A DNA stretch of 64,000 bases from Verrucomicrobiia bacterium. GTDB taxonomy: Bacteria; Verrucomicrobiota; Verrucomicrobiia; Palsa-1439. The DNA is taken from NCBI GenBank assembly GCA_035577545.1, contig DATLVI010000013.1, forward strand, positions 67,778 to 131,777. Direction: 5' to 3'. Position 1 is the stretch's first letter, and every line of letters begins with the position of its first letter. Made by a program: the position numbers and the translations under genes. Shown here piece after piece: positions 20,103-32,646 of this stretch. A model generated the notes under the pieces. The model was not told where the DNA came from, made no database searches, and saw only the letters and a list, made by a program, of their open reading frames with translations.

Positions 20103-22487
20103 TCATTTCTGTGGAAGCGATTGCAAGAGATTGGAATTATCCAAAGTGCGATCCTGGAAGATTGCCGCACGATTTTTTCCAGTCATCGGCGCATGGGCGA
20201 TAATCTTTTGCTGGCCGGTCTGCGGGTCAACAAGGGTCAAGCTCACGGTATTGTCTGAACCGACCGGATGCTTCATCTCGGACAAGACAATCACCAAATC
20301 TTCGGCAAATCGTTTTTGGGCCCAGCCTTCTCCAAACGGCGGTTGTCCGTATTGATGGCGACAAAAATCAAGTATCTCGGTGACCGACAAATCATCTATT
20401 GCCGCCAATTCGTATTCGGAGTCGTTGTAAGCAACAACAACTTTATTGATGTCGTTTGTATCGAAATGCACCATGGTAAATGGAGAAAGGTATTTCGCCG
20501 TGTCCCTGAATGGATTGGTTTTCGTCTGTGTCGTGGTAGCGTCTTTCAACATCCAGCTTAGTTCGCCCGTCAATCCTTCGTCGACTGGTTTCCCCTTGGC
20601 ATCTTCGCCTACGCGACGGTGCAGCAAGAATAAGAGGAACTGGCTCCATTGTTCGGTCAGTCCTCTGGGCTTGCCGAGATGCGTCTGGCGCACTTGTTCG
20701 ACGACCTTGGCTGCGGTCGCCTCATCCGGCAACACGAAGCCAATCAGGTGGGCCGATGCGTCTTGCAAGTGACTTGAGCCCGCCAATACCTTGCCGCCGA
20801 CGGTCATAAGCGCGGGTGATATCAGGCAGTCAAGATTCGTCACTTCTGCGGCAATGTCAGCGCGGTAATCGAAAACCGGGCCGGTGAATCGCACAAGCAG
20901 TTCGTGGTTGTCGGCGGAGCGCCCGGTTTCACAAGCGAGTTTCACTAGGACGACTTGTCCGCGATTGGTAACGTCGGTCACGCGAATCGCGGCTTCGCCA
21001 TATGGCTCTCTAATCGAGTTGTTAATGCGGTCTGGAAACCAGACGCCGACAGGCTCACGGCGGCTCAGCAACCGCGGGCCGAGAGCCATGAGCATGATGG
21101 TAGCGTAAAATACGAGCGCCTTCCCGATATTCTGCCTGGTGAATGAGAATTTCCGCAAGGATTCAGGTTTGATTCCACGCGCCCTGGCCCATTCGGTGGA
21201 ACAGTGCAGTTCCCACAGCATCTTGTACCAGACCGGATAGAACGCGAAGCCTACACCGCACACCGCCAACGCCAGCTTCCAGTTATTAAATGGTGCCGGG
21301 GCAAAGAACAGGATGAAGACCGGGGCAAAACACGTTGCGGCGTTCCAGATACCGAACAATGCGCCGCGAGTCGCCACGTCTCGCTTTTCTGTCTTGGTCA
21401 TGTGCGCGACAATTTCCCGCACCTCGGGCGAAGCGAAGGGCGACCACGTTGCCCAATTCCAACACGCGGATGGAGCCCGCCTTTCATTAAGAGCGGTCGG
21501 TTGGGAGTCAGGTTGGACCGGTTCCGTACCGGCAATTGTCTCTAGCTGCGTCTTCATTGCACTGGCTTGCTGGTACCGCAGTTCTGGTTTCTTTTCCAAA
21601 GCACGCAGCACCACTTCGTCGAGACGTACATCGATGTGAACTTTCTTGGACGGTGCTTCAATTTTCTTCTCGGGAAGTTCGCCGGTGAGCATCTGGTAGA
21701 ACACGACGCCCAGCGCGTAAATGTCCGCGCGATGATCTACTTCGGCGGGATGCGCGATCTGCTCGGGGGACATGTATTGCGGCGTGCCGATGATTTTGCC
21801 CGTCTCGGTCAGCAAAGGCGCGCCAGTTCCGTAGGCATGGGGAACCGGTTCATTTGCACCACCGATGATTTTGGCCAGCCCGAAGTCCGCAACCTTCACG
21901 CGCCCGCGACGATCGAGGAGGATATTTTCCGGCTTGATGTCGCGATGAACGATGCCCTGGTCGTGGGCAAACTGGAGCGCATCGCAGATCTGCGGCACAA
22001 TGGCCAACGCTTCGCGTGGGGCGATGCGGCCATTGACGAGCAACTGCCGCAGATTTACGCCGTCCACATATTCCATCATGAAGAAGTGCAGGCCGCCCGC
22101 CTGGCCGAACTCGTAGAGGATGACGATGCCGGGGTGGTTGAGTCGCGCGAGCGCCTGGGCTTCGCGAGCAAAACGTTCGGCAAAGGCTGGGTCGCTGCCG
22201 ATGCTGGGCGGAAGGATCTTGAGCGCCACGAAGCGATTCAGTCGTGGTTGCCGGGCTTTATAAACGGCGCCCATGCCACCCTTGCCGATGAGTTCGAGGA
22301 TTTCCAGTTGCGGAAAGAGTTTGGCCAACTCCTCCACCGGGGGCGGAATGAAGGGGGGTTGCTTGGCTCCGGCCGATTCCACGCCGGTGGGAAAACCGGA
22401 TTTGATGAGACATTCCGGGCACAAGCCCAATGGCACATCCGGGGCGAGCGGTTTCTGGCAACTTGGGCAAATGCGTTCGGTATCCAT
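20103..22487 (-). CDS. Hanks-type Ser/Thr protein kinase with N-terminal zinc ribbon, TM segments and a large C-terminal extracytoplasmic domain
   Basis: 794 aa. CPSCQ..CPEC zinc ribbon. Kinase motifs: GKGGMGAVYKA, VALK, HRDIKPENILL, DFGLAK, GTPQYMSPE. Hydrophobic helices around residues 370-450. Confidence 0.8.
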   Translation of the reverse strand: MDTERICPSCQKPLAPDVPLGLCPECLIKSGFPTGVESAGAKQPPFIPPPVEELAKLFPQLEILELIGKGGMGAVYKARQPRLNRFVALKILPPSIGSDPAFAERFAREAQALARLNHPGIVILYEFGQAGGLHFFMMEYVDGVNLRQLLVNGRIAPREALAIVPQICDALQFAHDQGIVHRDIKPENILLDRRGRVKVADFGLAKIIGGANEPVPHAYGTGAPLLTETGKIIGTPQYMSPEQIAHPAEVDHRADIYALGVVFYQMLTGELPEKKIEAPSKKVHIDVRLDEVVLRALEKKPELRYQQASAMKTQLETIAGTEPVQPDSQPTALNERRAPSACWNWATWSPFASPEVREIVAHMTKTEKRDVATRGALFGIWNAATCFAPVFILFFAPAPFNNWKLALAVCGVGFAFYPVWYKMLWELHCSTEWARARGIKPESLRKFSFTRQNIGKALVFYATIMLMALGPRLLSRREPVGVWFPDRINNSIREPYGEAAIRVTDVTNRGQVVLVKLACETGRSADNHELLVRFTGPVFDYRADIAAEVTNLDCLISPALMTVGGKVLAGSSHLQDASAHLIGFVLPDEATAAKVVEQVRQTHLGKPRGLTEQWSQFLLFLLHRRVGEDAKGKPVDEGLTGELSWMLKDATTTQTKTNPFRDTAKYLSPFTMVHFDTNDINKVVVAYNDSEYELAAIDDLSVTEILDFCRHQYGQPPFGEGWAQKRFAEDLVIVLSEMKHPVGSDNTVSLTLVDPQTGQQKIIAHAPMTGKNRAAIFQDRTLDNSNLLQSLPQK

Positions 22488-22549: not shown

Positions 22550-23323
22550 TTAATTTCCGGCCAGCACAGCAAAGAGGTGGCGCAATTCCTCATCAATGTC
22601 CTCCGACTCGGCCATCGTCCCGCCAATCTCCTCGCGGAGTAATTGCCGGTAGCGTTTACGCAGACGATGCACCGCCACCTTGACGGCACCTTCCTGCATG
22701 TCCAAGCCGGCGGCCAGTTTCGCATAGGGCTGTAGTTCGCGATCGCCGACCAAGGTTGGGTGCAACGCGGCAAATAAGACACGCTTTCCCTCGCGTTCGT
22801 ATTCATTTCGCAGGCGGTGCAGTACCGTGTCGAGCAAGGTCAAGGCCCAGCGTCGCTCGAAGTATTGCTCCGGGGTGCTGTTGTCCGCTGGCTCATTCCC
22901 ATACCGGGTTTCTCCGGTATCGAGTTGCAACGGCAGCGGCGGAATCCCGCCTCCACGTTTTTGGGCGCGCAGCTTGTCCCATTCGTCAGACAAAAATCGG
23001 CTCATGGCCGTGAGGAGAAATGTCCGGAAGCGTCCGCGCTCTTGTTTTGCGTCACCTACCCAGTGACGTTCGAGCAATCGCGCAAAGAAAGCCTGGGTAA
23101 GATCCTGGGCATCGTGCACCGAATGACCTCGCCGGCGCACGTAAGCGTACAAGGGATACCAGTAAGTCTGGCAAAGCTTCGCCAGGGCATCCCGCGCCTG
23201 GGTTGTGTCACTCTGTCCGGCTTTCAAGACCACCGACCAATGCGTCGTGGTGAAAACAGGATCTTGATATGCACCCGCCGCAGATTTGTTCAACCCGGGT
23301 GCGCCGTTGGTCGACGTGCTCAC
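22550..23323 (-). CDS. ECF-type RNA polymerase sigma factor (Ser/Thr-kinase-associated PVC-type ECF)
   Basis: 257 aa. N-terminal motif typical of PVC ECF sigma factors: THWSVVLKAGQSDTTQARDALAKLCQTYWYPLYAYVRRRG. Region-4-like C-terminus. Lies immediately upstream of the kinase. Confidence 0.7.
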   Translation of the reverse strand: MSTSTNGAPGLNKSAAGAYQDPVFTTTHWSVVLKAGQSDTTQARDALAKLCQTYWYPLYAYVRRRGHSVHDAQDLTQAFFARLLERHWVGDAKQERGRFRTFLLTAMSRFLSDEWDKLRAQKRGGGIPPLPLQLDTGETRYGNEPADNSTPEQYFERRWALTLLDTVLHRLRNEYEREGKRVLFAALHPTLVGDRELQPYAKLAAGLDMQEGAVKVAVHRLRKRYRQLLREEIGGTMAESEDIDEELRHLFAVLAGN

Positions 23324-23397: not shown

Positions 23398-24381
23398 TCA
23401 CGGTCCGACCGTGACGGATATCAACTCCAGCCTTTCAGCGGTGGCCAGATCGATGACCAACACGTTGCCGACACCCGAGGCGTAGTACTTATTCTCCATG
23501 GCATCGGGTTCGAGGGGCGAGGTCTCCAGGGTCTTCAAGCAGTTCGTGAACGTGCCGGAGGCGACGATGACAGTGTTGGTCAAGCTGATGACTTCCGCGA
23601 AGTCCTCGGCGTTGCCGAGATCGAACTCCTGCCGGTAGAAATCGCCGACTGTGGGATTGGCTTTCATGATGATGCCGGGTTGGGCGCCGTTGGTGCCGCC
23701 CTTGAACGAGCCGTCGATGCTGGTGATTTCGTTACCGTCCAGTTCATGGGTGTTTTCGCCGAAGTACCAGACGTTACCGTCCTTGTCCTGCGCGAACCAA
23801 TCGAGCGTGTCCTCTGTCAACACACCATCCGCATACACGACGTCGTGAACTTCGACGCAGGTGACACCGAAGATCACTTTCGTGTTATGGGTCACGGAAA
23901 CGACGTTACTTTCGATCGGGCTGACGTACGTGAACGTCGTGCCGGGGATGAGAGGCATGAATGAATTGGTGATCGTGCCGACAAAGTTCGACGCAACAAT
24001 CGACGGTTCGTAAGTAGCTTTGCCCAGGCGGGCGCAGCCCGCAAGCCGGGCAGCCGTCTGGGCCTTACACGTGTCCAGGGCATCTTTCAGATCGGATTTG
24101 GCTTGGGCCTGACACGCCTTCTGGGCGACGGGATCGGCGATATTGGCGCACTTGCCCAAGGCCAGGTTGTAATCGCTCTTGGCCCCCTCCACGCAGGCCT
24201 TCGCCGCCGCCAGCGAGGTCGTCTTACAGGGATCACCGCCGGCAGTCGCGGTGGTGCTGCCGATACCGAGACTGAGAACAGTCCCCGCCGCCAGGACAGC
24301 CGCGATGGACAAACTTCTCGAGCCGATTCTGCCAGATGCTCTTTGTGACGATGTCTTCACAAGCTTCGGGTGCTGCTTCAT
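23398..24381 (-). CDS. Secreted Cys-rich hypothetical protein (start at MKQHPKLV.., ~24381)
   Basis: Signal peptide, then a low-complexity KAC/KAQ-rich segment with 6 Cys, then a globular C-terminal domain. Lies upstream of the ECF sigma gene on the same strand. Confidence 0.4.
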   Translation of the reverse strand: MKQHPKLVKTSSQRASGRIGSRSLSIAAVLAAGTVLSLGIGSTTATAGGDPCKTTSLAAAKACVEGAKSDYNLALGKCANIADPVAQKACQAQAKSDLKDALDTCKAQTAARLAGCARLGKATYEPSIVASNFVGTITNSFMPLIPGTTFTYVSPIESNVVSVTHNTKVIFGVTCVEVHDVVYADGVLTEDTLDWFAQDKDGNVWYFGENTHELDGNEITSIDGSFKGGTNGAQPGIIMKANPTVGDFYRQEFDLGNAEDFAEVISLTNTVIVASGTFTNCLKTLETSPLEPDAMENKYYASGVGNVLVIDLATAERLELISVTVGP

Positions 24382-24554
24382 GAATTCCTCCTTGAAAGTT
24401 AAATGGCCCATTTCAATTTACCTGGATTCTACCAGAAGCAACGTTACCGGGAGGTGATGACAGGATGATTTCAACCTTGCACTTTGAGATGCGCGGGAGT
24501 ATTTAGCGGGCCAAGCTTGGAGATGGAGAGGCCCAGTCTGGGAGGTGATGGTAC

Positions 24555-26078
24555 GTGGCTACTTTCAATGCAGTTCCGCCCCGGCATGAGGACACCGGCG
24601 GGGCGCGCTATGGGTTTGACCCGATGCGGTTTGGTCTTATTGGCGCGGTGATTCTCGCCGTCGCGATTGTCTGCGGGTTCGTGTTTGCCTGGTTTTTCTG
24701 CCGCATCGAACCACCCACCGGAACCTGCGCGATCCTGACCCGGCTGGATGGCAAGGACATTCCCGCCAACGAAATTATCGCCACCTCACCGGAGCAAAAG
24801 GGCATCCAGTTGGATCCACTGAGCGAGGGCCGCTATTTTCGCAACCCGGTTTATTGGCACTGGGAAATTATGCCGTTGGTGCAGATCCAGCAGAGCGAAG
24901 TCGGCGTGCTGGTACGACAGTTTGGCAAGGCCGCGCCGCCGAGCCAGTTCATTGTGAAGAACAAGGAGGCGGACGGCACGCAGTACCGGGGCGTGATTGA
25001 CGAACCGTTGCGGCCGGGCACATACCGGATCAATCCCAACGCCTATCACGTCGAGAAACGGCCCGCGGTGAAGATCGAGCCCGGCGAGGTCGGTGTGGTC
25101 ACGCTCCGTTACGGACGCGACCCGGCCGAGGCGAACACAATTCTTGTGAAAGAAGGCGAGCGTGGTGTGCAGGAGACGCCGTTGCGGCCGGGCACGTACT
25201 ACCTCAACCCGTACATCTGTCGCGTGGACGTGGTCGGCGTGCAGAGCCATAAGACGGAATTCGAGATCAATTTCCTCTCGAAGGACGGGTTCCGCTTCCC
25301 GGTCAAGGGCGCGGTCGAGTGGGCGGTGGAGGAGGCGAAAGCGCCCGAGGTGTTCGTGAAGATCGGCGATGAAGAGGACATCGTCAATAAAGTGATCCTG
25401 CGCTCGGCGCTCTCGATGAGCCGTATCCAGGGATCGAAATACAGTTCCGCCGATGTCATCAGTGGCACGGTGCGCAAGGCGTTTCAGGACGAATTTAACA
25501 AGCACATCACCACCGAGTCAGCGAAGAAGAACATTTTGGTGAAGGCAGCGTTGATTAGTGAAATTGAGCCGTCGCAAAAAATCGCCGAGCCGATTCGCGA
25601 GCGGGAGATTGCCATCCAGACCCGCGCGAAGTACCAAAGCGAAATCGAGCGCGCCAAGTCGGATGCGAATGTTGCCGCTCAACGGAAGATGCAAGACCAA
25701 CGGGTCCGGTTCGTGACGGCGGAGACCACGCGCACCAACGAAATTCAAAAAGCCACCAAGGAACAACAGGTGCAGGTCATCGCCGCGCAGCGCGACCTCG
25801 ATGTCACCCGGAAGGACCTGGAAACAGCGGAGAACCAATCGCAGGCGATCATTTCCACGGGACAGGGCGATGCGGACGTGATTACCTACACGCGGACGGC
25901 CGAGGCGAACGCGCTGCGATCGATCATTCTGCCATTCGGCAGTGGGGAGGCGTACGCGCGGTATCTGTATTTGAAGAAGATCGCGCCGAACATTGATTCG
26001 ATTCTCGCCAATTCGGACGGGCCGCTTGCGGAACCGTTTCGAGACCTTTCCAGATCGTCGAAAGGGGGTGCCAAGTGA
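24555..26078 (+). CDS. SPFH/band-7 domain membrane protein with a triplicated N-terminal SPFH-hairpin motif and a coiled-coil tail
   Basis: 507 aa. N-terminal TM helix. Three ~55-aa repeats of G(E)VGV(L/V)..G..P..PGTY.(L/I)NPY, resembling the HflK/C N-terminal ERGVV..PGLHF.PF hairpin. A complete SPFH-like region and a KR/E-rich coiled coil follow. Confidence 0.6.
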   Translation: MATFNAVPPRHEDTGGARYGFDPMRFGLIGAVILAVAIVCGFVFAWFFCRIEPPTGTCAILTRLDGKDIPANEIIATSPEQKGIQLDPLSEGRYFRNPVYWHWEIMPLVQIQQSEVGVLVRQFGKAAPPSQFIVKNKEADGTQYRGVIDEPLRPGTYRINPNAYHVEKRPAVKIEPGEVGVVTLRYGRDPAEANTILVKEGERGVQETPLRPGTYYLNPYICRVDVVGVQSHKTEFEINFLSKDGFRFPVKGAVEWAVEEAKAPEVFVKIGDEEDIVNKVILRSALSMSRIQGSKYSSADVISGTVRKAFQDEFNKHITTESAKKNILVKAALISEIEPSQKIAEPIREREIAIQTRAKYQSEIERAKSDANVAAQRKMQDQRVRFVTAETTRTNEIQKATKEQQVQVIAAQRDLDVTRKDLETAENQSQAIISTGQGDADVITYTRTAEANALRSIILPFGSGEAYARYLYLKKIAPNIDSILANSDGPLAEPFRDLSRSSKGGAK

Positions 26079-27697
26079 TGAAGAACCGCACTCTCACCAT
26101 GGCACTTGGCGCGGCGCTGGTGCTGCTGCTTGCGTTCGTGTTCGTCTATGAAGGTTTCTGGGTTTGGGTGGTGGAGAATACGGTCGTGCCATCCAACAGG
26201 ATGCTGGTGTTGATTGCCAAGACGGGCAAGGAAATGCCGGCTGGCCAGATCATCGCCGAGCCCGGACAAAAAGGCGTGCTCCTCGAACCGCTCGGCCCGG
26301 GCCGTCACTTCGTCAATCCGTTCCTGTACGAGCGACAACTGAAAGATCAGGTGATCGTGTCCGGCGGCGAAGTCGGCGTGGTGATCACCAAGTTTGGCAA
26401 GGAACTTCCCGCGGGCGAATTCCTGGCCGGCCCCGGCGAGCGTGGCATCCAGCGCGAGGTCCTCTTGCCCGGCACCTATCGCCTCAATCCGTACGCCTAC
26501 GAGATTCGCGTGGTAAAAATGATCGAGATCGATCCCGGTTACGTGGGCGTCGTCACGGCGCGTTCGGGCAAACCCGCGCAGACGCAACTCGCCGGTCCGG
26601 GTGAACGCGGCGTGCAAAAAGTTGTCCTGCAGCCCGGCCTGTACCCGCTCAACCCCGAGGCGTTTTCGGTCGAGCGCATTGAGATCGGCTACAACCAGAT
26701 CACGATGGCCCACGCGGGCAAGCTCCCGCTGTCAAATACTTCGGGCCAGTTTGCCGGTAAGGAGAAACAGGCGCAAGCGATTGGTGAGGCGGCGGAACGG
26801 GCCCGGGTCCCCTCAGGTCAATACGGTATTCCTGTCCTGCCCGCGGTCACGTTTCCGTCGAGCGATGGGTTTGAGATCACTATCGACGTGACATTGCTCT
26901 GGCAATTGCTGCCGGAGGACGCCCCGTCGGTCGTAGCACGGTACGGCAACATCAAGAAGATCGAGGAGAACATCCTGATCCCCCAGATCAACTCCACGGC
27001 CCGCATCAAGGGATCCACATTCGGTGCGGTGGACTTCATCGTCGGCGACAAACGCGAGGAGTTCCAGCGGGCGTTCCAGGAAACCATCGAGACCACGCTC
27101 CAGGAGAAGAAGCTGCAGGTGGACCTTGCGCTTGTGCAAGACACGCTGGTGCCCGACAACATTTCGGGGCCGATCCAGGATGCGCGGATCGCCGCCGAAT
27201 GGAACATCACGAACGTGGAGAAGACGAAGACGGAAGCCAACAAGGCTCAGCTCGACGAGAACGTCGGCAAGATTCGCCAGATCGAACAGGTTGTCGAGTA
27301 CGAGACCCAGCGGTTGGAAGGGAACATTCACGCGGAACAGGAGAAACAGGTGAACGAGACCGCCGCGCAGACGCGGTTGCTCGTCGCCGAGTTGGCGCGG
27401 CAAACCGCAGCGATTCGCGCGGACATCAAACGCAAACTCGGCGGCGCGGAGGCGAAAGTGGTGGAGTTGAAGGGCAGGGCGGAAGGCGACGGTTACGCGT
27501 TACAGGTGAAAGCGGTCGGCACACCAGCGGACTACGCATTCTATCAATTCGCGCAACAATTGCCCGACCAGATGAAGCTCATGTTGATCTATGCCGGTGC
27601 CGGCACACTGTGGACGGACCTGGATAAGGCCATGAAGATCGCGCCGCTCGGCGTGCTGCAGGAGCTGCAACAAGGTCCGGCGCCCGCGAACAAATGA
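26075..27697 (+). CDS. SPFH/band-7 domain membrane protein, paralog of the upstream gene (same triplicated motif)
   Basis: GTG/ATG start overlaps the upstream TGA. 540 aa with TM helix, three GEVGVV..PGTYRLNPYAYE-type repeats, an SPFH region and a long coiled coil. Confidence 0.6.
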   Translation: MMKNRTLTMALGAALVLLLAFVFVYEGFWVWVVENTVVPSNRMLVLIAKTGKEMPAGQIIAEPGQKGVLLEPLGPGRHFVNPFLYERQLKDQVIVSGGEVGVVITKFGKELPAGEFLAGPGERGIQREVLLPGTYRLNPYAYEIRVVKMIEIDPGYVGVVTARSGKPAQTQLAGPGERGVQKVVLQPGLYPLNPEAFSVERIEIGYNQITMAHAGKLPLSNTSGQFAGKEKQAQAIGEAAERARVPSGQYGIPVLPAVTFPSSDGFEITIDVTLLWQLLPEDAPSVVARYGNIKKIEENILIPQINSTARIKGSTFGAVDFIVGDKREEFQRAFQETIETTLQEKKLQVDLALVQDTLVPDNISGPIQDARIAAEWNITNVEKTKTEANKAQLDENVGKIRQIEQVVEYETQRLEGNIHAEQEKQVNETAAQTRLLVAELARQTAAIRADIKRKLGGAEAKVVELKGRAEGDGYALQVKAVGTPADYAFYQFAQQLPDQMKLMLIYAGAGTLWTDLDKAMKIAPLGVLQELQQGPAPANK

Positions 27698-28110
27698 GGC
27701 CAGCGCTTATGTCCGCGAACTTCGACCACCGCATCTTCCACCGGCGCCGCAAATTGTTCAAGGTGATCGGCCTCGCGCTGGTGCTGGCGGGAGCGTTCGT
27801 GCTCCTGAATATGATGGGCGAATTGCCCGAGGAACCGCTCAAAGGCACCGGTGCGATCTTCGGGGGGACCGTGTTGATCCTGTTCGGGATTCTTTTCCTG
27901 TATCAGGGCTACAAGCTCCCGCTCGAAGAAGCCCTGGAACTCATCCACGAACGCGGCCGCGGCGTCACCGAGTCCGAAATCGTCCACGCCATGCGCGTGG
28001 ACCAGCCCACCGCCGGTCGCATCCTCCGTGCCTTGATTGCCAAGGGTTTCCTCCGCCGCGCCACCGAGCAACCCAGCCATACCGAGGAAGTCTTCGAGCC
28101 CGTGAGATAG
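27694..28110 (+). CDS. Small membrane protein with a C-terminal winged-helix (MarR/PadR-like) domain
   Basis: ATGA overlap with the upstream SPFH gene. Two TM helices, then LELIHERGRGVTESEIVHAMRVDQPTAGRILRALIAKGFLRR (wHTH-like). Confidence 0.4.
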   Translation: MRPALMSANFDHRIFHRRRKLFKVIGLALVLAGAFVLLNMMGELPEEPLKGTGAIFGGTVLILFGILFLYQGYKLPLEEALELIHERGRGVTESEIVHAMRVDQPTAGRILRALIAKGFLRRATEQPSHTEEVFEPVR

Positions 28111-28263
28111 GCAGCCTCGGTGGCTGCCGCCGGGCCGTGACTGTCACCGTCCGGTAGAAAAGTATGACCCTTCTGGAACAAAACCCCAGTTCGCGTATCT
28201 TATCTCCGGGTTATAGTAGGCGTGTGTTCACCAATAAATCTGTTGCCATGGGGGATCAAGAGA

Positions 28264-28887
28264 ATGAAGACCGCGGCGAAATCACTACTTGTTTTGGCAT
28301 GTTTACTGTCCAGCCATTTGGCGGCCGCTCTGGCCGCGACGAACACGATCCAGATTTTCAACTTCGATTTCGGTGCACTTCCGTCAACCCACATCAATCC
28401 AATCATCACGCTCGGCGACACGGTTACCTGGGTCTGGACGAATGGGTTTCACAGCACCACGGCGGCGCCGGGCCAGCTCGATAGTTGGGATTCCGGCGTC
28501 CACAGTCCGCCGTTTTCCTTCAGCCATACATTTGGCCAACTGGGTACTTTCAATTATTACTGCACGGTTCACGGTTTCAGTGCGGGCTGTCGGGGTGTTG
28601 GTGCGATGTCAGGAATTGTCACCGTGGTGCTCACCGGCTCGCCACCGTACCAGGTGACAGGGATTATGATGCAAGGCAGTGACATTCTTGTCACCTGGGT
28701 AACCGGCGGGATTTGCCAGACCAATATCCTGCAGCGGGCAACGGGTGCCGCTGACGGCAGCTACACCAACAATTTCACGGACATTTTCACCGTGGTCGGC
28801 GCTACGGGCAATACCACCAATTTTCTCGACGTCGGTGCGGCCACCAACTTTCCGTTCTGCTATTACCGCGTCAACGTTCCGCAGTAG
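28264..28887 (+). CDS. Secreted cupredoxin (type 1 blue copper, plastocyanin/azurin-like) fused to a conserved ~80-aa C-terminal domain
   Basis: Start at MKTAAKSLLVLACLLSSHLAAALAA. A Cu-ligand-like spacing: H in TNGFHST, then YYCTVHG..GAMSG (Cys, His, Met). The C-terminal 80 aa are ~55% identical to the C-terminus of the protein at 37995..39710, ending ..CYYRVNVPQ. Confidence 0.5.
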   Translation: MKTAAKSLLVLACLLSSHLAAALAATNTIQIFNFDFGALPSTHINPIITLGDTVTWVWTNGFHSTTAAPGQLDSWDSGVHSPPFSFSHTFGQLGTFNYYCTVHGFSAGCRGVGAMSGIVTVVLTGSPPYQVTGIMMQGSDILVTWVTGGICQTNILQRATGAADGSYTNNFTDIFTVVGATGNTTNFLDVGAATNFPFCYYRVNVPQ

Positions 28888-28891
28888 CAAG

Positions 28892-30475
28892 CTAGACCGC
28901 CGGTTCGTCTTTGCGGTAACTGGAGACGACCCAGTTACTGAGGAATTTGTCGGGGTCGGCCAGGGCGGATTTGGGGATGACGAATTCGGACTGGCCGGCG
29001 TTGTTCTTCACGAGATTCAGCCCGAACTGGTAGTCCTTGAAGAGTTCACAGCAGAGATCGGTGACGGATTTGTTGGCGTGCTGGGCGCGCTCGATAATCT
29101 CTTCGACCGCGTCGGGTTCCAGGCGCATTCGCAGCTTGTGTTTCTCCTCGAACCTCCGCTCGAAATCGTGGACAAGTTGGCGCATCAGTTCGCGCTGCTC
29201 GTAGGCCGGTTCCTTGAGGATGCGTTGCAATTCCGCCTCGGGGTTCTCCACGAGCGATCGCGTGACAACGAACTGCCGCACCGTCGATGAGGGCAGTTCA
29301 AACTTGAACTCGCGCAGTCCCCGTTCGCATACGGTGAGCAATCCGCGCGCCCCGGTATTTTCGAGCGCTGCTTTCTCCGCGACGGCGTGCAAGCCGTCGT
29401 CCGAAAACATCACGTCGATGCCGAACGCGTGGAAGCTCGATTCGTATTGCTTGATGACCGAACCTTCGCTCTGTTTGAGGATATGGTACAGGTCGGCGAC
29501 AGTCAGCTTGTCGAGGACGACGCGGACGGGCAGGCGACCGATGAACTCGGGTTCAAAACCGTACTTCACGAAGTCCTCCGTCTGCGCGCGGCGCTGGAGT
29601 TCCGCTTCGCTCACGGATTCCGCCAGGTGACCGCCGAACCCAATGTCTGCCTGGCGCACGCGCTTGCGGATGATTTCCAACATTTGGTCAAAGGCGCCAC
29701 TGACGATGAAAAGGATGTGCCTGGTGTTGATTGTCTCGCGCTTGACCTTGCCGCGCCGCTGGTATTCGAAAGCGGCCTGTAATTGCGCCTGAATATCCGT
29801 GGGCGAGCGGAGGGGGACTTCCGTTTCCTCCATGAGCTTCAAGAGATTGGTCTGCACGCCGCGACCGCTGACGTCGCGTCCCAGGACGTGGGCAGGCGTG
29901 GCAATCTTGTCGATCTCGTCGAGATAAACGATGCCGTAACTCGCGAGGCTTACGTCACCGTCCGCGCGGTGGATCAACTCGCGCACGAGGTCCTCCACGT
30001 CGCCTCCCACGTAACCGGTTTCGCTGAATTTGGTGGCGTCGGCCTTCACGAACGGCACGCCGATGAGGTCGGCGATCGTCTTGATGAGATATGTCTTGCC
30101 CACGCCCGTGGGGCCGATGAGCAGTACGTTTTGCTTCACGTAATCGCGAAGCTCCTCGCCGCGCTCGGCGGCTTTAACGTGGTTGTAATGGTCACACACC
30201 GCGATCGCGAGGGCCTTCTTGGCGTCCTCCTGCTGGATGACGAAACGGTCGAGGTGCGCTTTGACTTCCTTCGGCTTGAGATGGAAATTGAACTCGATCT
30301 CCTTGCGCTTCGGTTCCTCCACCGGCGGCGTGGTCTCCACCGTCTCGGTGTGGGGTGAGGAGAAGACGACCCGGTCGCCAAACTCCTGTTTCATGAATTC
30401 AGAGAGTTTCTTCTGGATCTCTTCCGGCGATGGCAATGGTTGATCAGAGCTCATGGTTGAAACACTGTAGCTCAC
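28892..30475 (-). CDS. HslU/ClpX-family AAA+ unfoldase-like ATPase (orphan; no HslV/ClpP gene nearby)
   Basis: 527 aa. Walker A LLIGPTGVGKT. HslU-like KADATKFSETGYVGGDVEDLVRELI. Walker B/sensor region VYLDEIDKI. An ~80-aa N-terminal extension lacks a zinc-binding domain. Confidence 0.65.
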   Translation of the reverse strand: MSYSVSTMSSDQPLPSPEEIQKKLSEFMKQEFGDRVVFSSPHTETVETTPPVEEPKRKEIEFNFHLKPKEVKAHLDRFVIQQEDAKKALAIAVCDHYNHVKAAERGEELRDYVKQNVLLIGPTGVGKTYLIKTIADLIGVPFVKADATKFSETGYVGGDVEDLVRELIHRADGDVSLASYGIVYLDEIDKIATPAHVLGRDVSGRGVQTNLLKLMEETEVPLRSPTDIQAQLQAAFEYQRRGKVKRETINTRHILFIVSGAFDQMLEIIRKRVRQADIGFGGHLAESVSEAELQRRAQTEDFVKYGFEPEFIGRLPVRVVLDKLTVADLYHILKQSEGSVIKQYESSFHAFGIDVMFSDDGLHAVAEKAALENTGARGLLTVCERGLREFKFELPSSTVRQFVVTRSLVENPEAELQRILKEPAYEQRELMRQLVHDFERRFEEKHKLRMRLEPDAVEEIIERAQHANKSVTDLCCELFKDYQFGLNLVKNNAGQSEFVIPKSALADPDKFLSNWVVSSYRKDEPAV

Positions 30476-32646
30476 TCTGCGGCGTTTTCAACGGCCGGCA
30501 CGAGCGCAGCCATGAATTGCGCGAGGCTTTCGGCCTTGCCGATGACCACCAGGTCGTCGCCCGTTGCCAGGCGTGTAGCGGGTTCGGGCATTTCCGTGAG
30601 ACTGCGACCCGTGGTGGGATCGCGTCGCTTGATGGCGAGGATGTGGATGCCGTAACTGGCGCGCGGCGCCAACTCGGCCAGCGTGCGGCCGTTCAAGTGC
30701 GCAGGCAGCTCGAAGGTGCGCAGTTCGAAGCCTTCAGGCAGCTCCACGAATACGTCGCGTTTCTCACCATCTTCCCGGACAATGAAGTGGCCGAGGAGTT
30801 GTCGCTTGTGCATGATCTCCTGGCTGTACACGCCCAGCAGGTCGCGCTTGGAAATCCAACCGATCAGCTTGCGGTCCGCGGGGCTGTCGATGACGGGCAG
30901 GCGCTCCGCGTTTTCGCGCCAGAAAATGTCCATGACATCGGCGAGGTTCTGGCGCGGGGTCACAAACTGGAACGAGTCATCCACAAGATCATCGGCGATG
31001 ACGGACGACAGAGACTCACCCTGATGAAGCATTTCTTTCAATGAATGGAGCCGAATCGCGCCGAGGAATTTGCCTTCATTGTTCACCACGTACAGATTGC
31101 TATACGGTTCCTTCAAGAATTGCTCGACGACCATGGAGAAAGGGACCGACTGGCTGACCGCGGGGACGTCATCGTGCATGATGTCTTCCACGCGCAGCGA
31201 CTGCATGACGCCGGCCTCGAGTCCCGTGGGCAGCACCACGCCGCGACGGCGCAACGATTCCTCGTCCAAGGAGCGTCCCTTGAACAGACGCGTCGTAAAA
31301 TGGCTGACGATGCACACGAACATCAGGGGCAGCACAATCTGGTAGTTGTTGGTCTGTTCAAAAATCATCATGATGGCGGTGAGCGGCGCGTGCGTTATGC
31401 CCGCGAGAACACCACCCATGCCCACCAGCGCGTACGCGCCCTGCTCGGCTGTCGCATGGGGAAATAATCGATGGACTTCGAAGCCGAACGCGCCGCCAAG
31501 CAGCGACCCCAGCATCAATGACGGGGTGAACAGCCCGCCCGCGCCGCCTGATCCAAACGTCAGCGATGAGGCCAGGATTTTCATTGGGATCAATATGAGC
31601 AGCAGAGCGAGCGTCAGCTCTTTCGCCCCCTGGAGTGTCAAGTTGACTGTCTCGAAGCCGTTGCCGTACACGTGGGGAAACCAGACGCCGATGACTCCCA
31701 CCAGCGTCATCCCGAGCGCCGGTTTCAACCAGGTCGGCAGGGGCAGCTTCTCAAATGCGTCCTGCGAACCAAACAGCGTGCGCATGAACAACAAGGAAAT
31801 CATACCCGAGAGCAATCCCAGGATGAGATAGGGCAGCAGTTCCCACGCGGACACCAGTTCGTAATGCGGGACCACGAAGCGCGGCAGGTTACCCATGCAA
31901 CTGCGAAAGACCAGCGTGGAAATCACCGACACCACGACGACGGGCCCGAGCACTTCGAGAGCGAAGTTGCCCATAAGGATTTCCAGCGCGAACAGGGAAC
32001 CGCCAATCGGCGCGTTGTAGACGGCGGCCAATGCCGCTGCCGCCGAGGCGCAGACCAGAACGCGAAGTTGCTGTGACGAAAGCTTGAAGCGACGTCCCGT
32101 GTAGGAGCCGATGGCGCTGGCCAGCAACGCCATCGCGCCTTCGCGACCCAGGGAACCGCCCGTGGAGATCGTCACGATCGCCGCCCAGTCGCGCGGTACG
32201 GTCTGCCGCAATGAGATGACGCCGCCCTTGAGGGAGACGGCCTGCATGATGGTGGTAATGCCCCCGCCGCGGGTCTGGACGCGAAAGAACCAGCCAATCA
32301 CGCCCACCAGCAGGCCGCCGACAAGAGGAATGATGATATGGAACGGCCAGGGATTATCGGCGGCGGTGGAAAGCAGATTTTGGCCGCTGCCCCAAAACTG
32401 GTTCTGGAGAAAGGAGATGATATGCGCGGTCACCACGGAGGTGAACCCGACGGCCAACCCGACCAACGGCAGAAGCAGCAGGAACGCATTTTCGCCCGGA
32501 GACCGTTTGGCCAGTTGCGGCCAGATGAGTCTCCGGAGTTTGTTGCCGATTGACCGAACCCGTGGCAGCCATGAATGCATCTGAGACACTGTACTAACAA
32601 ATCGGGCGGGGCGGGTCAAACCATGCGCTGCACGAAAACCTTGCAA
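30472..32646 (-). CDS. ClC-family chloride channel/transporter with C-terminal tandem CBS domains
   Basis: 724 aa. About 10 TM helices, ClC selectivity-filter-like GREGAMA and GGLFTPS, then two CBS-like modules. Its stop overlaps the start of the AAA+ gene by 4 nt. Confidence 0.7.
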   Translation of the reverse strand: MQGFRAAHGLTRPARFVSTVSQMHSWLPRVRSIGNKLRRLIWPQLAKRSPGENAFLLLLPLVGLAVGFTSVVTAHIISFLQNQFWGSGQNLLSTAADNPWPFHIIIPLVGGLLVGVIGWFFRVQTRGGGITTIMQAVSLKGGVISLRQTVPRDWAAIVTISTGGSLGREGAMALLASAIGSYTGRRFKLSSQQLRVLVCASAAAALAAVYNAPIGGSLFALEILMGNFALEVLGPVVVVSVISTLVFRSCMGNLPRFVVPHYELVSAWELLPYLILGLLSGMISLLFMRTLFGSQDAFEKLPLPTWLKPALGMTLVGVIGVWFPHVYGNGFETVNLTLQGAKELTLALLLILIPMKILASSLTFGSGGAGGLFTPSLMLGSLLGGAFGFEVHRLFPHATAEQGAYALVGMGGVLAGITHAPLTAIMMIFEQTNNYQIVLPLMFVCIVSHFTTRLFKGRSLDEESLRRRGVVLPTGLEAGVMQSLRVEDIMHDDVPAVSQSVPFSMVVEQFLKEPYSNLYVVNNEGKFLGAIRLHSLKEMLHQGESLSSVIADDLVDDSFQFVTPRQNLADVMDIFWRENAERLPVIDSPADRKLIGWISKRDLLGVYSQEIMHKRQLLGHFIVREDGEKRDVFVELPEGFELRTFELPAHLNGRTLAELAPRASYGIHILAIKRRDPTTGRSLTEMPEPATRLATGDDLVVIGKAESLAQFMAALVPAVENAAE

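Follow-up and report, generated by a model that had tools for sequence, protein, structure and literature searches.

Gene order and domain content of the locus

The locus described here lies in a 64,000-nt stretch of DNA (the window) from a Verrucomicrobiia bacterium (assembly GCA_035577545.1, contig DATLVI010000013.1, positions 67,778 to 131,777) and consists of three tightly coupled open reading frames (ORFs) on the + strand, at window positions 24555-28110, which we call A, B and C. An initial annotation made from the sequence had described them as an operon of two SPFH/band 7 paralogs with triplicated N-terminal hairpin motifs and a small membrane protein with a MarR-like winged helix-turn-helix (wHTH), possibly a scaffold that sequesters a transcription factor. 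The coordinates were borne out by the ORF listing and this interpretation as a whole is partly supported. The features of the locus are collected in Table 1.

Both A and B matched the Pfam profile of the SPFH/Band 7 superfamily (Band_7, PF01145; cut-off 23.6 bits), A over residues 173-371 (E 8.5e-24, 85 bits) and B over residues 151-388 (E 1.4e-22, 81 bits), and BLASTP aligned the two proteins end to end with 28% identity, in agreement with their description as SPFH paralogs. The Band_7 span is about 40 residues longer in B than in A, and the B proteins of a more distant clade are longer still (~570 aa). The extra length of B is due to an insert after repeat 3 and before the SPFH2 core (about residues 206-262, window 26690-26860), which is missing from A. 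A scan of the NCBIfam models at E up to 1 gave no named family for A, B or C and returned irrelevant weak matches only.

Upstream of the SPFH core, each of A and B carries three tandem copies of a unit of about 57 aa. All 15 pairwise comparisons among the six repeat segments beat all 300 shuffles (z 6-22), and a repeat hidden Markov model (HMM) built from the six segments found three non-overlapping copies in each protein (E 1e-22 to 1e-29). Scanned alone, the third repeats of A and B (A-R3 and B-R3) aligned to Band_7 positions 3-39 with E ~0.01, and B-R1+R2 matched positions 2-38 twice (E 6e-4), all of them under the Pfam cut-off but consistent; A-R1 and A-R2 are tied to Band_7 solely through their similarity to R3. 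Since repeat 3 falls at the start of the Band_7 profile and B-R1+R2 match it as well, the unit had rightly been identified with the N-terminal element of SPFH proteins. In A, the cysteine C49 (window 24699-24701), located in the WFFCRIEP motif at the boundary between membrane and periplasm, is retained by at least 90% of the 56 homologues aligned, whose identity goes down to 38%.

Coupling through overlapping start and stop codons had been proposed for both junctions. The overlap of A and B stood, whereas the start of C assumed for the second one is questionable. If C begins at ATG 27694, the B/C junction reads ATGA at 27694-27697; an alternative start at ATG 27709 gives a protein of 133 aa, and most of 103 homologue clusters are called from the equivalent methionine. 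A GAGG sequence is located 9-10 nt 5′ of ATG 27709 and no Shine-Dalgarno-like site was found before ATG 27694, and from these sequence features ATG 27709 appears the more likely start. Given the two candidate starts, B and C are therefore separated by a 4-nt overlap or by an 11-nt gap, a tight spacing either way.

A scan of the region 24200-28400 for sigma-70 promoters and terminators gave nothing beyond shuffle expectation. The sequences upstream of A in 28 loci could not be aligned with one another, and no conserved operator-like element emerged from them. The sole inverted repeat in the A upstream region (24380-24620 scanned) is a 12-nt imperfect palindrome, AAAGTTAAATGG / CCATTTCAATTT, at 24395-24419, which spans the start of a divergent gene (23398-24411). 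Minus-strand ORFs over A and B (e.g., 24786-25505 and 25886-26713) are unsupported and were treated as chance ORFs of a sequence with 59% G+C.

Table 1. Features of the A-B-C locus (window coordinates).
Feature	Position	Strand	Evidence
GGAGG Shine-Dalgarno-like site, 9 nt 5′ of the GTG start of gene A	24541..24545	+	sequence reading
Gene A, SPFH paralog 1, 507 aa, GTG start	24555..26078	+	ORF; Band_7; 898 homologues; AF2 pLDDT 81.7
A N-terminal transmembrane anchor, ~residues 26-48, ending in near-invariant WFFCRIEP	24630..24698	+	hydropathy; model helix 23-48; conservation
A repeat 1, SPFH1-like beta-domain, residues 51-109	24705..24881	+	repeat HMM E 5.9e-25; shuffles; repeats-only model
A repeat 2, residues 111-172	24885..25070	+	repeat HMM E 3.1e-22
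A repeat 3, residues 174-230, N-terminal part of Band_7 profile	25074..25244	+	repeat HMM E 3e-26; Band_7 E 0.013
A SPFH2 alpha/beta core, residues 231-340	25245..25574	+	Band_7 match; model strands and helices; Foldseek prohibitin, erlin, HflK/C
A long helical region (coiled-coil / cap-helix type), residues 341-479	25575..25991	+	model helices
A stop/B start overlap: GTGA, or TGATG if B begins at ATG 26078	26075..26078	+	sequence
Gene B, SPFH paralog 2, 540 aa	26075..27697	+	ORF; Band_7; BLASTP vs A
B N-terminal transmembrane anchor, ~residues 7-30, K3 and R5 before it	26093..26164	+	hydropathy, charge bias
B repeat 1, residues 38-93	26186..26353	+	repeat HMM E 3.9e-25
B repeat 2, residues 95-150	26357..26524	+	repeat HMM E 9.9e-29
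B repeat 3, residues 152-205	26528..26689	+	repeat HMM E 1.3e-22; Band_7 positions 3-33, E 0.008
Gene C, membrane protein with two transmembrane (TM) helices and a C-terminal minimal wHTH, 138 aa from ATG 27694	27694..28110	+	ORF; MarR PF01047
C transmembrane hairpin: TM1 ~24-41, acidic loop, TM2 ~54-70; invariant FHRRRK precedes	27763..27903	+	hydropathy; conservation
C winged helix-turn-helix, residues 76-138, invariant EEVFEPV at end	27919..28107	+	Pfam; weak PDB alignments; conservation

Predicted fold and membrane topology

Structure modelling with AlphaFold2 (AF2) covered A, as predicted models of the full-length protein and of residues 49-232. In the full-length model (pLDDT 81.7) a TM helix (residues 23-48) is followed by three beta modules, each with four to five strands, and then by an alpha/beta core and about 140 helical residues, distributed over helices 341-384, 388-461 and 464-479. 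The model of A thus has the SPFH1 + SPFH2 fold with long coiled-coil helices after it, and the long helical region expected behind the SPFH core is found at residues 341-479. When this model was compared with the PDB by Foldseek, prohibitin, erlin, HflK/C, stomatin, flotillin and QmcA were matched at E 1e-12 to 1e-8 (with a probability of 1.0 for the first five), the best overall matches being prohibitin 1/2 and erlin 1/2 (PDB 9O9Z, 8RRH and 9O9U; E 1.5e-12). The major vault protein (MVP) was interleaved among these matches and aligned over ~550 columns, beyond any canonical SPFH protein.

Residues 49-232, modelled alone, gave a pLDDT of 91.7 and a pTM of 0.79. The 16 best PDB matches of this repeats-only model were all MVP repeat regions, including the R1-R7 crystal structures; they aligned with all three repeats over ~190 columns, with TM-scores of 0.40-0.50 (query-normalised) and E-values of 2e-3 to 0.5. 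Behind them came prohibitin, erlin and stomatin, each matched in its single SPFH1 domain (58-64 columns, rmsd 1.0-3.3 Å). The predicted repeat array of A therefore resembles the wall-forming array of MVP in being a tandem series of SPFH1-like repeats. The repeat unit of these models, with its four or five strands, amounts to an entire SPFH1 beta-domain, the same module that is strung together in the barrel wall of MVP, so that its assignment to the SPFH N-terminal element holds and its description as just a hairpin does not. It has been reported that MVP R1-R9 are homologous to SPFH1 and that the MVP shoulder corresponds to SPFH2 (PMC12915596), and the N-terminal domain of ordinary archaeal SPFH proteins has been classed as one MVP repeat (PMC13607799). 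The MVP and SPFH1 matches of the repeats-only model agree with both reports and are consistent with the repeat being SPFH1.

Several known systems can be compared with A and B on this basis. Like HflK/HflC of E. coli (PDB 7VHQ, 7WI3 and 9CZ2; structural match E ~1e-10), A and B are two adjacent paralogous SPFH genes whose products have an N-terminal TM anchor, a bulk that is periplasmic (predicted for A/B from charge bias) and the order SPFH1-SPFH2-long helices-C-terminal tail. Unlike HflK/HflC, they have three SPFH1 domains instead of one, do not match the HflK/HflC equivalog models (NCBIfam, E up to 1), show no linkage to FtsH and have, as a lineage-specific third gene, a wHTH membrane protein. 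Prohibitin 1/2 and erlin 1/2 each form a heteromeric cage from two paralogs that have an N-terminal TM helix as anchor, as proposed for A/B, and prohibitin is the sole match of A and B among PDB sequences (E 0.011); unlike A/B, these proteins are eukaryotic and organellar, and have one SPFH1 domain and no associated wHTH protein. With MVP (PDB 4V60, 9BW5 and 3GF5), A shares the succession of an SPFH1-type array, SPFH2 (the 'shoulder') and a long cap helix. The differences are the number of repeats (three versus nine), the TM anchor directly before repeat 1 in A/B, whereas MVP is soluble with its halves joined at the N-termini, and the presumed heteromeric pair in place of a homomer.

Topology was read from the positive-inside rule, as the net charge of the 15 residues before and after the TM helix. 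The values were +1.5 before and 0 after for A (83 proteins), and +1.7 and -0.6 for B (75 proteins), which suggests that the N-termini of A and B are inside and that the SPFH bulk is periplasmic, as in HflK/C. In C, the N-terminal tail is strongly basic and the loop between the two TM helices is acidic, so that its N- and C-termini alike, the wHTH included, are predicted to face the cytoplasm.

Conservation of the A-B pair, its relatives and gene C

A one-genome-per-species collection held 449 related stretches; 80 loci were retrieved for taxonomy by record title and 86 were examined for gene order. The record titles named at least seven phyla, as Verrucomicrobiota, Kiritimatiellota, Lentisphaerota, Planctomycetota, Omnitrophota, Auribacterota, Desulfobacterota and Gammaproteobacteria metagenome-assembled genomes (MAGs), and the closest A homologues are from Verrucomicrobiia. 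Two contigs with operons of about 73% identity (L024 and L027) are titled as MAGs of 'uncultured Bifidobacterium sp.' and 'Akkermansia muciniphila'; these titles are probably binning or labelling errors and not the true hosts.

In the 86 loci, B is located directly 3′ of A wherever the sequence extends. Among 81 loci, a start codon for B overlaps the end of A by 4 nt in 65 and by 1 nt in a further 6, and exactly three repeats are present in every full-length A or B copy (158 of 158). With the number held constant in all copies of both genes, the triplication predates the A/B duplication. The source annotations of the pair members are generic ('SPFH domain-containing protein', 'HflC', 'hypothetical'), and no description of the A-B family was found in the literature searched. 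The pair is thus a widespread, unnamed, always-paired and membrane-anchored SPFH family. The search for conserved neighbours over the same loci found, besides C, local synteny among close relatives only. A reading of the locus as a defence system was dropped, as the PADLOC models gave no match for A and B and one weak and irrelevant match for C.

The profile of the six window repeats was also searched against 1.84 billion representative proteins; the 1386 proteins matched at E up to 1e-3, of which 666 also passed 1e-10, carry between 2 and 17 matched repeats each. Triplication, which the initial annotation had called unusual, is therefore the rule within the A-B family and one of several repeat numbers among its relatives, even if an ordinary SPFH protein does have a single SPFH1 domain. 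The multi-repeat relatives include P0224 (1793 aa), P0228, P0231, P0233, P0240, P0256, P0258 and P0370, all with generic annotations. In a Pfam scan of ten such relatives, nine had Band_7 after the repeats, one had no Pfam match and none (0/10) matched a Vault model. Cultured organisms are represented by Geomonas proteins of ~835 aa in P0256, an 837-aa cluster with 8 matched repeats, and by an 840-aa protein of Microseira wollei with 8 repeats and a C-terminal zinc ribbon. P0259 (836 aa, from a prokaryotic metagenome) has a repeat at its very start, with no TM helix before it, and continues with Band_7 and long helices, a predicted soluble, MVP-like layout of MVP length. These relatives overlap the 'bacterial MVP-like / band 7' proteins of Daly et al. 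(2013; PMC3762200), and Asgard MVP homologues carry 5 repeats (PMC12962969). Such prokaryotic MVP-like or multi-repeat Band 7 proteins share with A/B the several MVP/SPFH1-type repeats before Band 7; A and B differ from them in forming a coupled pair of short, TM-anchored proteins, whereas those of the literature are of MVP length and were studied as single genes (PMC3762200; PMC12962969).

Gene C encodes, as had been proposed, a small membrane protein with two TM segments and a MarR-type wHTH. Residues 80-122 matched MarR (PF01047) with 29.2 bits, above the Pfam gathering cut-off of 24.6, over profile positions 8-49 of 59 (42/59), and weaker HTH_IclR and TrmB wHTH matches cover the same stretch (80-127). 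Residues 80-131 also aligned weakly with the sequences of MarR structures in the PDB (3BPX, E 0.35; SlyA 1LJ9, E 0.95). The wHTH is minimal, composed of H1-H2-H3 and a beta wing at which the protein stops, and only ~63 residues are soluble. Invariant or near-invariant motifs are FHRRRK before TM1, YxGYKLPLEEA after TM2 and the C-terminal EEVFEPV, and the pattern VDRxTAxRI..L..KGFLRR of the recognition helix and wing is conserved. MarR regulators are soluble homodimers in which N- and C-terminal dimerisation helices flank the wHTH. C departs from this plan by its two TM helices N-terminal to the wHTH, and appears to be a non-canonical MarR protein that shares the wHTH only, with a 2-TM hairpin in place of the dimerisation helices. 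Its family is confined to 103 clusters (53-100% identity), all of which, where an organism name is given, are Verrucomicrobia; one copy with 100% identity to C (P0121) belongs, by its NCBI annotation, to a Verrucomicrobiae MAG.

The three-gene arrangement recurs in part of the range of the pair. C accompanies the pair only in loci whose A shares at least ~66% identity with the window A (L003-L034, one Verrucomicrobiia clade), and it is missing from all loci of the ~40%-identity clade, in which unrelated and often convergent genes come after B. An in-frame ATG of C was found at -4 to +14 nt from the end of B in 21 of 22 loci of the C-carrying clade, and no in-frame ATG lies within that interval in the remaining one; C also follows B in L089 (4-nt overlap) and L087 (41-nt gap). 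The operon is decayed in L088 (3961-5324). There A is deleted, B is left in two pieces, one covering residues 2-105 and the other residues 355-540, and an internal deletion has cost C the end of TM2 and helix 1. A ClpX-like AAA gene lies nearby, as in the window. This joint decay is modest evidence that A, B and C are kept or lost together. C is thus a lineage-specific addition and not part of the conserved A-B core.

Other genes of the window were noted beside the locus. On the - strand, a ClpX-like AAA ATPase gene (28892-30475; AAA_2, ClpB_D2-small), syntenic in at least six related loci, is overlapped by 4 nt by the end of a ClC chloride-channel gene with CBS and TrkA_C domains (30472-32646), an unusual coupled pair. 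Also on the - strand, an ECF-type sigma factor gene (22550-23323; Sigma70_r2) is located directly upstream of a Ser/Thr kinase gene (20103-22487), whose 794-aa product has hydrophobic segments in a long C-terminal extension, and the two may be a signalling pair. Between C and the AAA gene, on the + strand, a 221-aa protein (28222-28887) has a signal-peptide-like N-terminus, no Pfam match and a YYCTVHG...M motif that, by eye, we take to resemble a type-1 copper (cupredoxin) site.

A putative periplasmic cage and the alternatives

The explanation that we consider the most probable, without holding it as firm, is that A and B form a heteromeric cage in the periplasm, similar to that of HflK/C but with its wall extended in the manner of the vault, to which a membrane wHTH partner has been added in one lineage. 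The two co-translated paralogs would together build a large ring or cage on the periplasmic side of the inner membrane and would alternate in it like HflK/HflC or prohibitin 1/2. Each subunit would be anchored in the membrane by its N-terminal TM helix; three stacked SPFH1 beta-domains, in the place of the one of ordinary SPFH proteins, would heighten the cage wall like the R-repeats of the vault barrel, and the SPFH2 core with the long helices would close the dome. Such a cage would enclose a membrane patch and a periplasmic volume. The third gene, presumably co-transcribed, would have joined the pair in one Verrucomicrobiia clade that includes this genome. The TM hairpin of C could sit in or at the fenced membrane patch, with the minimal MarR-type wHTH facing the cytoplasm, and this placement would make C a candidate client or adaptor linking the state of the cage to the cytoplasm and possibly to DNA.

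Several observations weigh against this explanation. The likeness of A and B to MVP is at the level of fold and architecture only, and a sequence-level link was not found: neither the whole proteins (E up to 1) nor the isolated repeats (E up to 10) matched the Pfam models Vault or MVP_shoulder; a profile of 111 repeats compared with the PDB sequences returned only chance-level matches to ribosomal protein L18, with no MVP and no canonical SPFH1; and the multi-repeat relatives P0259 and P0256 reached HflC or QmcA, and no MVP, among the PDB sequences. The topology of A and B is derived only from the charge bias, which is weak in the window A (3 K/R versus 3 D/E in the N-terminal tail). The cage is proposed from sequence analysis and from the model of an A monomer. 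As for C, the A-B pair persists without it in the ~40%-identity clade (titles Kiritimatiellota, Lentisphaerota, Planctomycetota, Desulfobacterota, Gammaproteobacteria and others), in which no other partner, FtsH included, recurs next to the pair. Moreover, if the membrane separates the SPFH bulk from the wHTH, contact between A/B and C would be possible only via the TM helices or the ~12-residue periplasmic loop of C; since a periplasmic SPFH bulk cannot touch the wHTH, the functional link of A/B with C comes down to gene adjacency in one clade.

The scaffold might instead act by sequestering C as a membrane-tethered transcription factor, whose release, proteolysis or altered clustering would change transcription, perhaps of its own operon. 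We regard this possibility, which is close to the initial annotation, as tentative. The soluble part of C is a complete minimal wHTH above the MarR cut-off of Pfam, its recognition-helix pattern is conserved and the predicted cytoplasmic position is compatible with DNA contact; within the clade, C is strictly linked to B and, in L088, decays along with A and B. However, a protein missing from most of the range of the family cannot explain the role of the pair, and C is without the flanking dimerisation helices of MarR. A conserved operator-like element was not found upstream of A, where the lone palindrome spans the start of the divergent gene. Because of the opposite-side topology, sequestration could act only on the transmembrane hairpin of C.

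A structural role for C, in the position that NfeD occupies beside other SPFH proteins, is in our view doubtful. C would then have its TM hairpin in or under the cage and would use the wHTH as a protein-binding module with no DNA role. Short NfeD proteins consist of a few TM helices plus a small soluble domain, a layout that C shares, and like them C adjoins SPFH genes; the QmcA-YbbJ complex (8Z5G) is among the structural matches of the A model, and the invariant motifs outside the recognition helix (FHRRRK, YxGYKLPLEEA and EEVFEPV) suggest conserved protein contacts. The analogy is nevertheless positional only: C has no match to PF01957 at E up to 1, its fold class is wHTH and not OB-fold, and the opposite-side topology is a problem for this arrangement too.

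Finally, it seems unlikely that A and B are simply the HflK/HflC of this lineage, modulators of FtsH with extra repeats as a neutral elaboration and with C as an unrelated neighbour: the paired, adjacent and coupled paralogs with N-terminal TM helix and predicted periplasmic bulk, the good structural matches to HflK/C and the JGI automatic annotation of many members as 'regulator of protease activity HflC' are in favour, but A and B reach no NCBIfam model, HflK/HflC included, their best sequence match among solved structures is the prohibitin one, at E 0.011 only, neither FtsH nor any other gene recurs beside the pair in the loci examined, and the invariance of three repeats in 158 copies, from several phyla by record, argues for selection.

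For the preferred explanation, of a heteromeric A/B cage with a vault-like wall, the coupling to a wHTH protein is a secondary lead, and the main interest lies in the evolution and geometry of SPFH cages and the vault. It is a recent insight that the SPFH cages (HflK/C, prohibitin, erlin, flotillin and stomatin) and the vault belong to one architectural family, and the origins of the vault in prokaryotes are actively debated (PMC12962969, PMC13607799, PMC12915596). A much bolder and rather improbable extension would be that prokaryotic SPFH cages form a graded series in which the number of tandem SPFH1 domains (2 to 17) sets the wall height, with A/B as a conserved, membrane-anchored, heteromeric, periplasmic 'half-vault' that stands, as a living intermediate, between HflK/C-type cages and the vault of eukaryotes, and with the cage of Verrucomicrobiia also wired to the cytoplasm by a transmembrane wHTH protein, which would signal the state of the cage to DNA. 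A and B, with three SPFH1 domains, and their relatives, with up to 17, offer a natural series in which repeat number can be set against cage geometry, and this series bears on whether the vault barrel arose by SPFH1 expansion. C is a concrete candidate for a client or partner, other than a protease or NfeD, of a bacterial SPFH cage, and its link with A and B, if true, would be a new way to couple a periplasmic scaffold to the cytoplasm.

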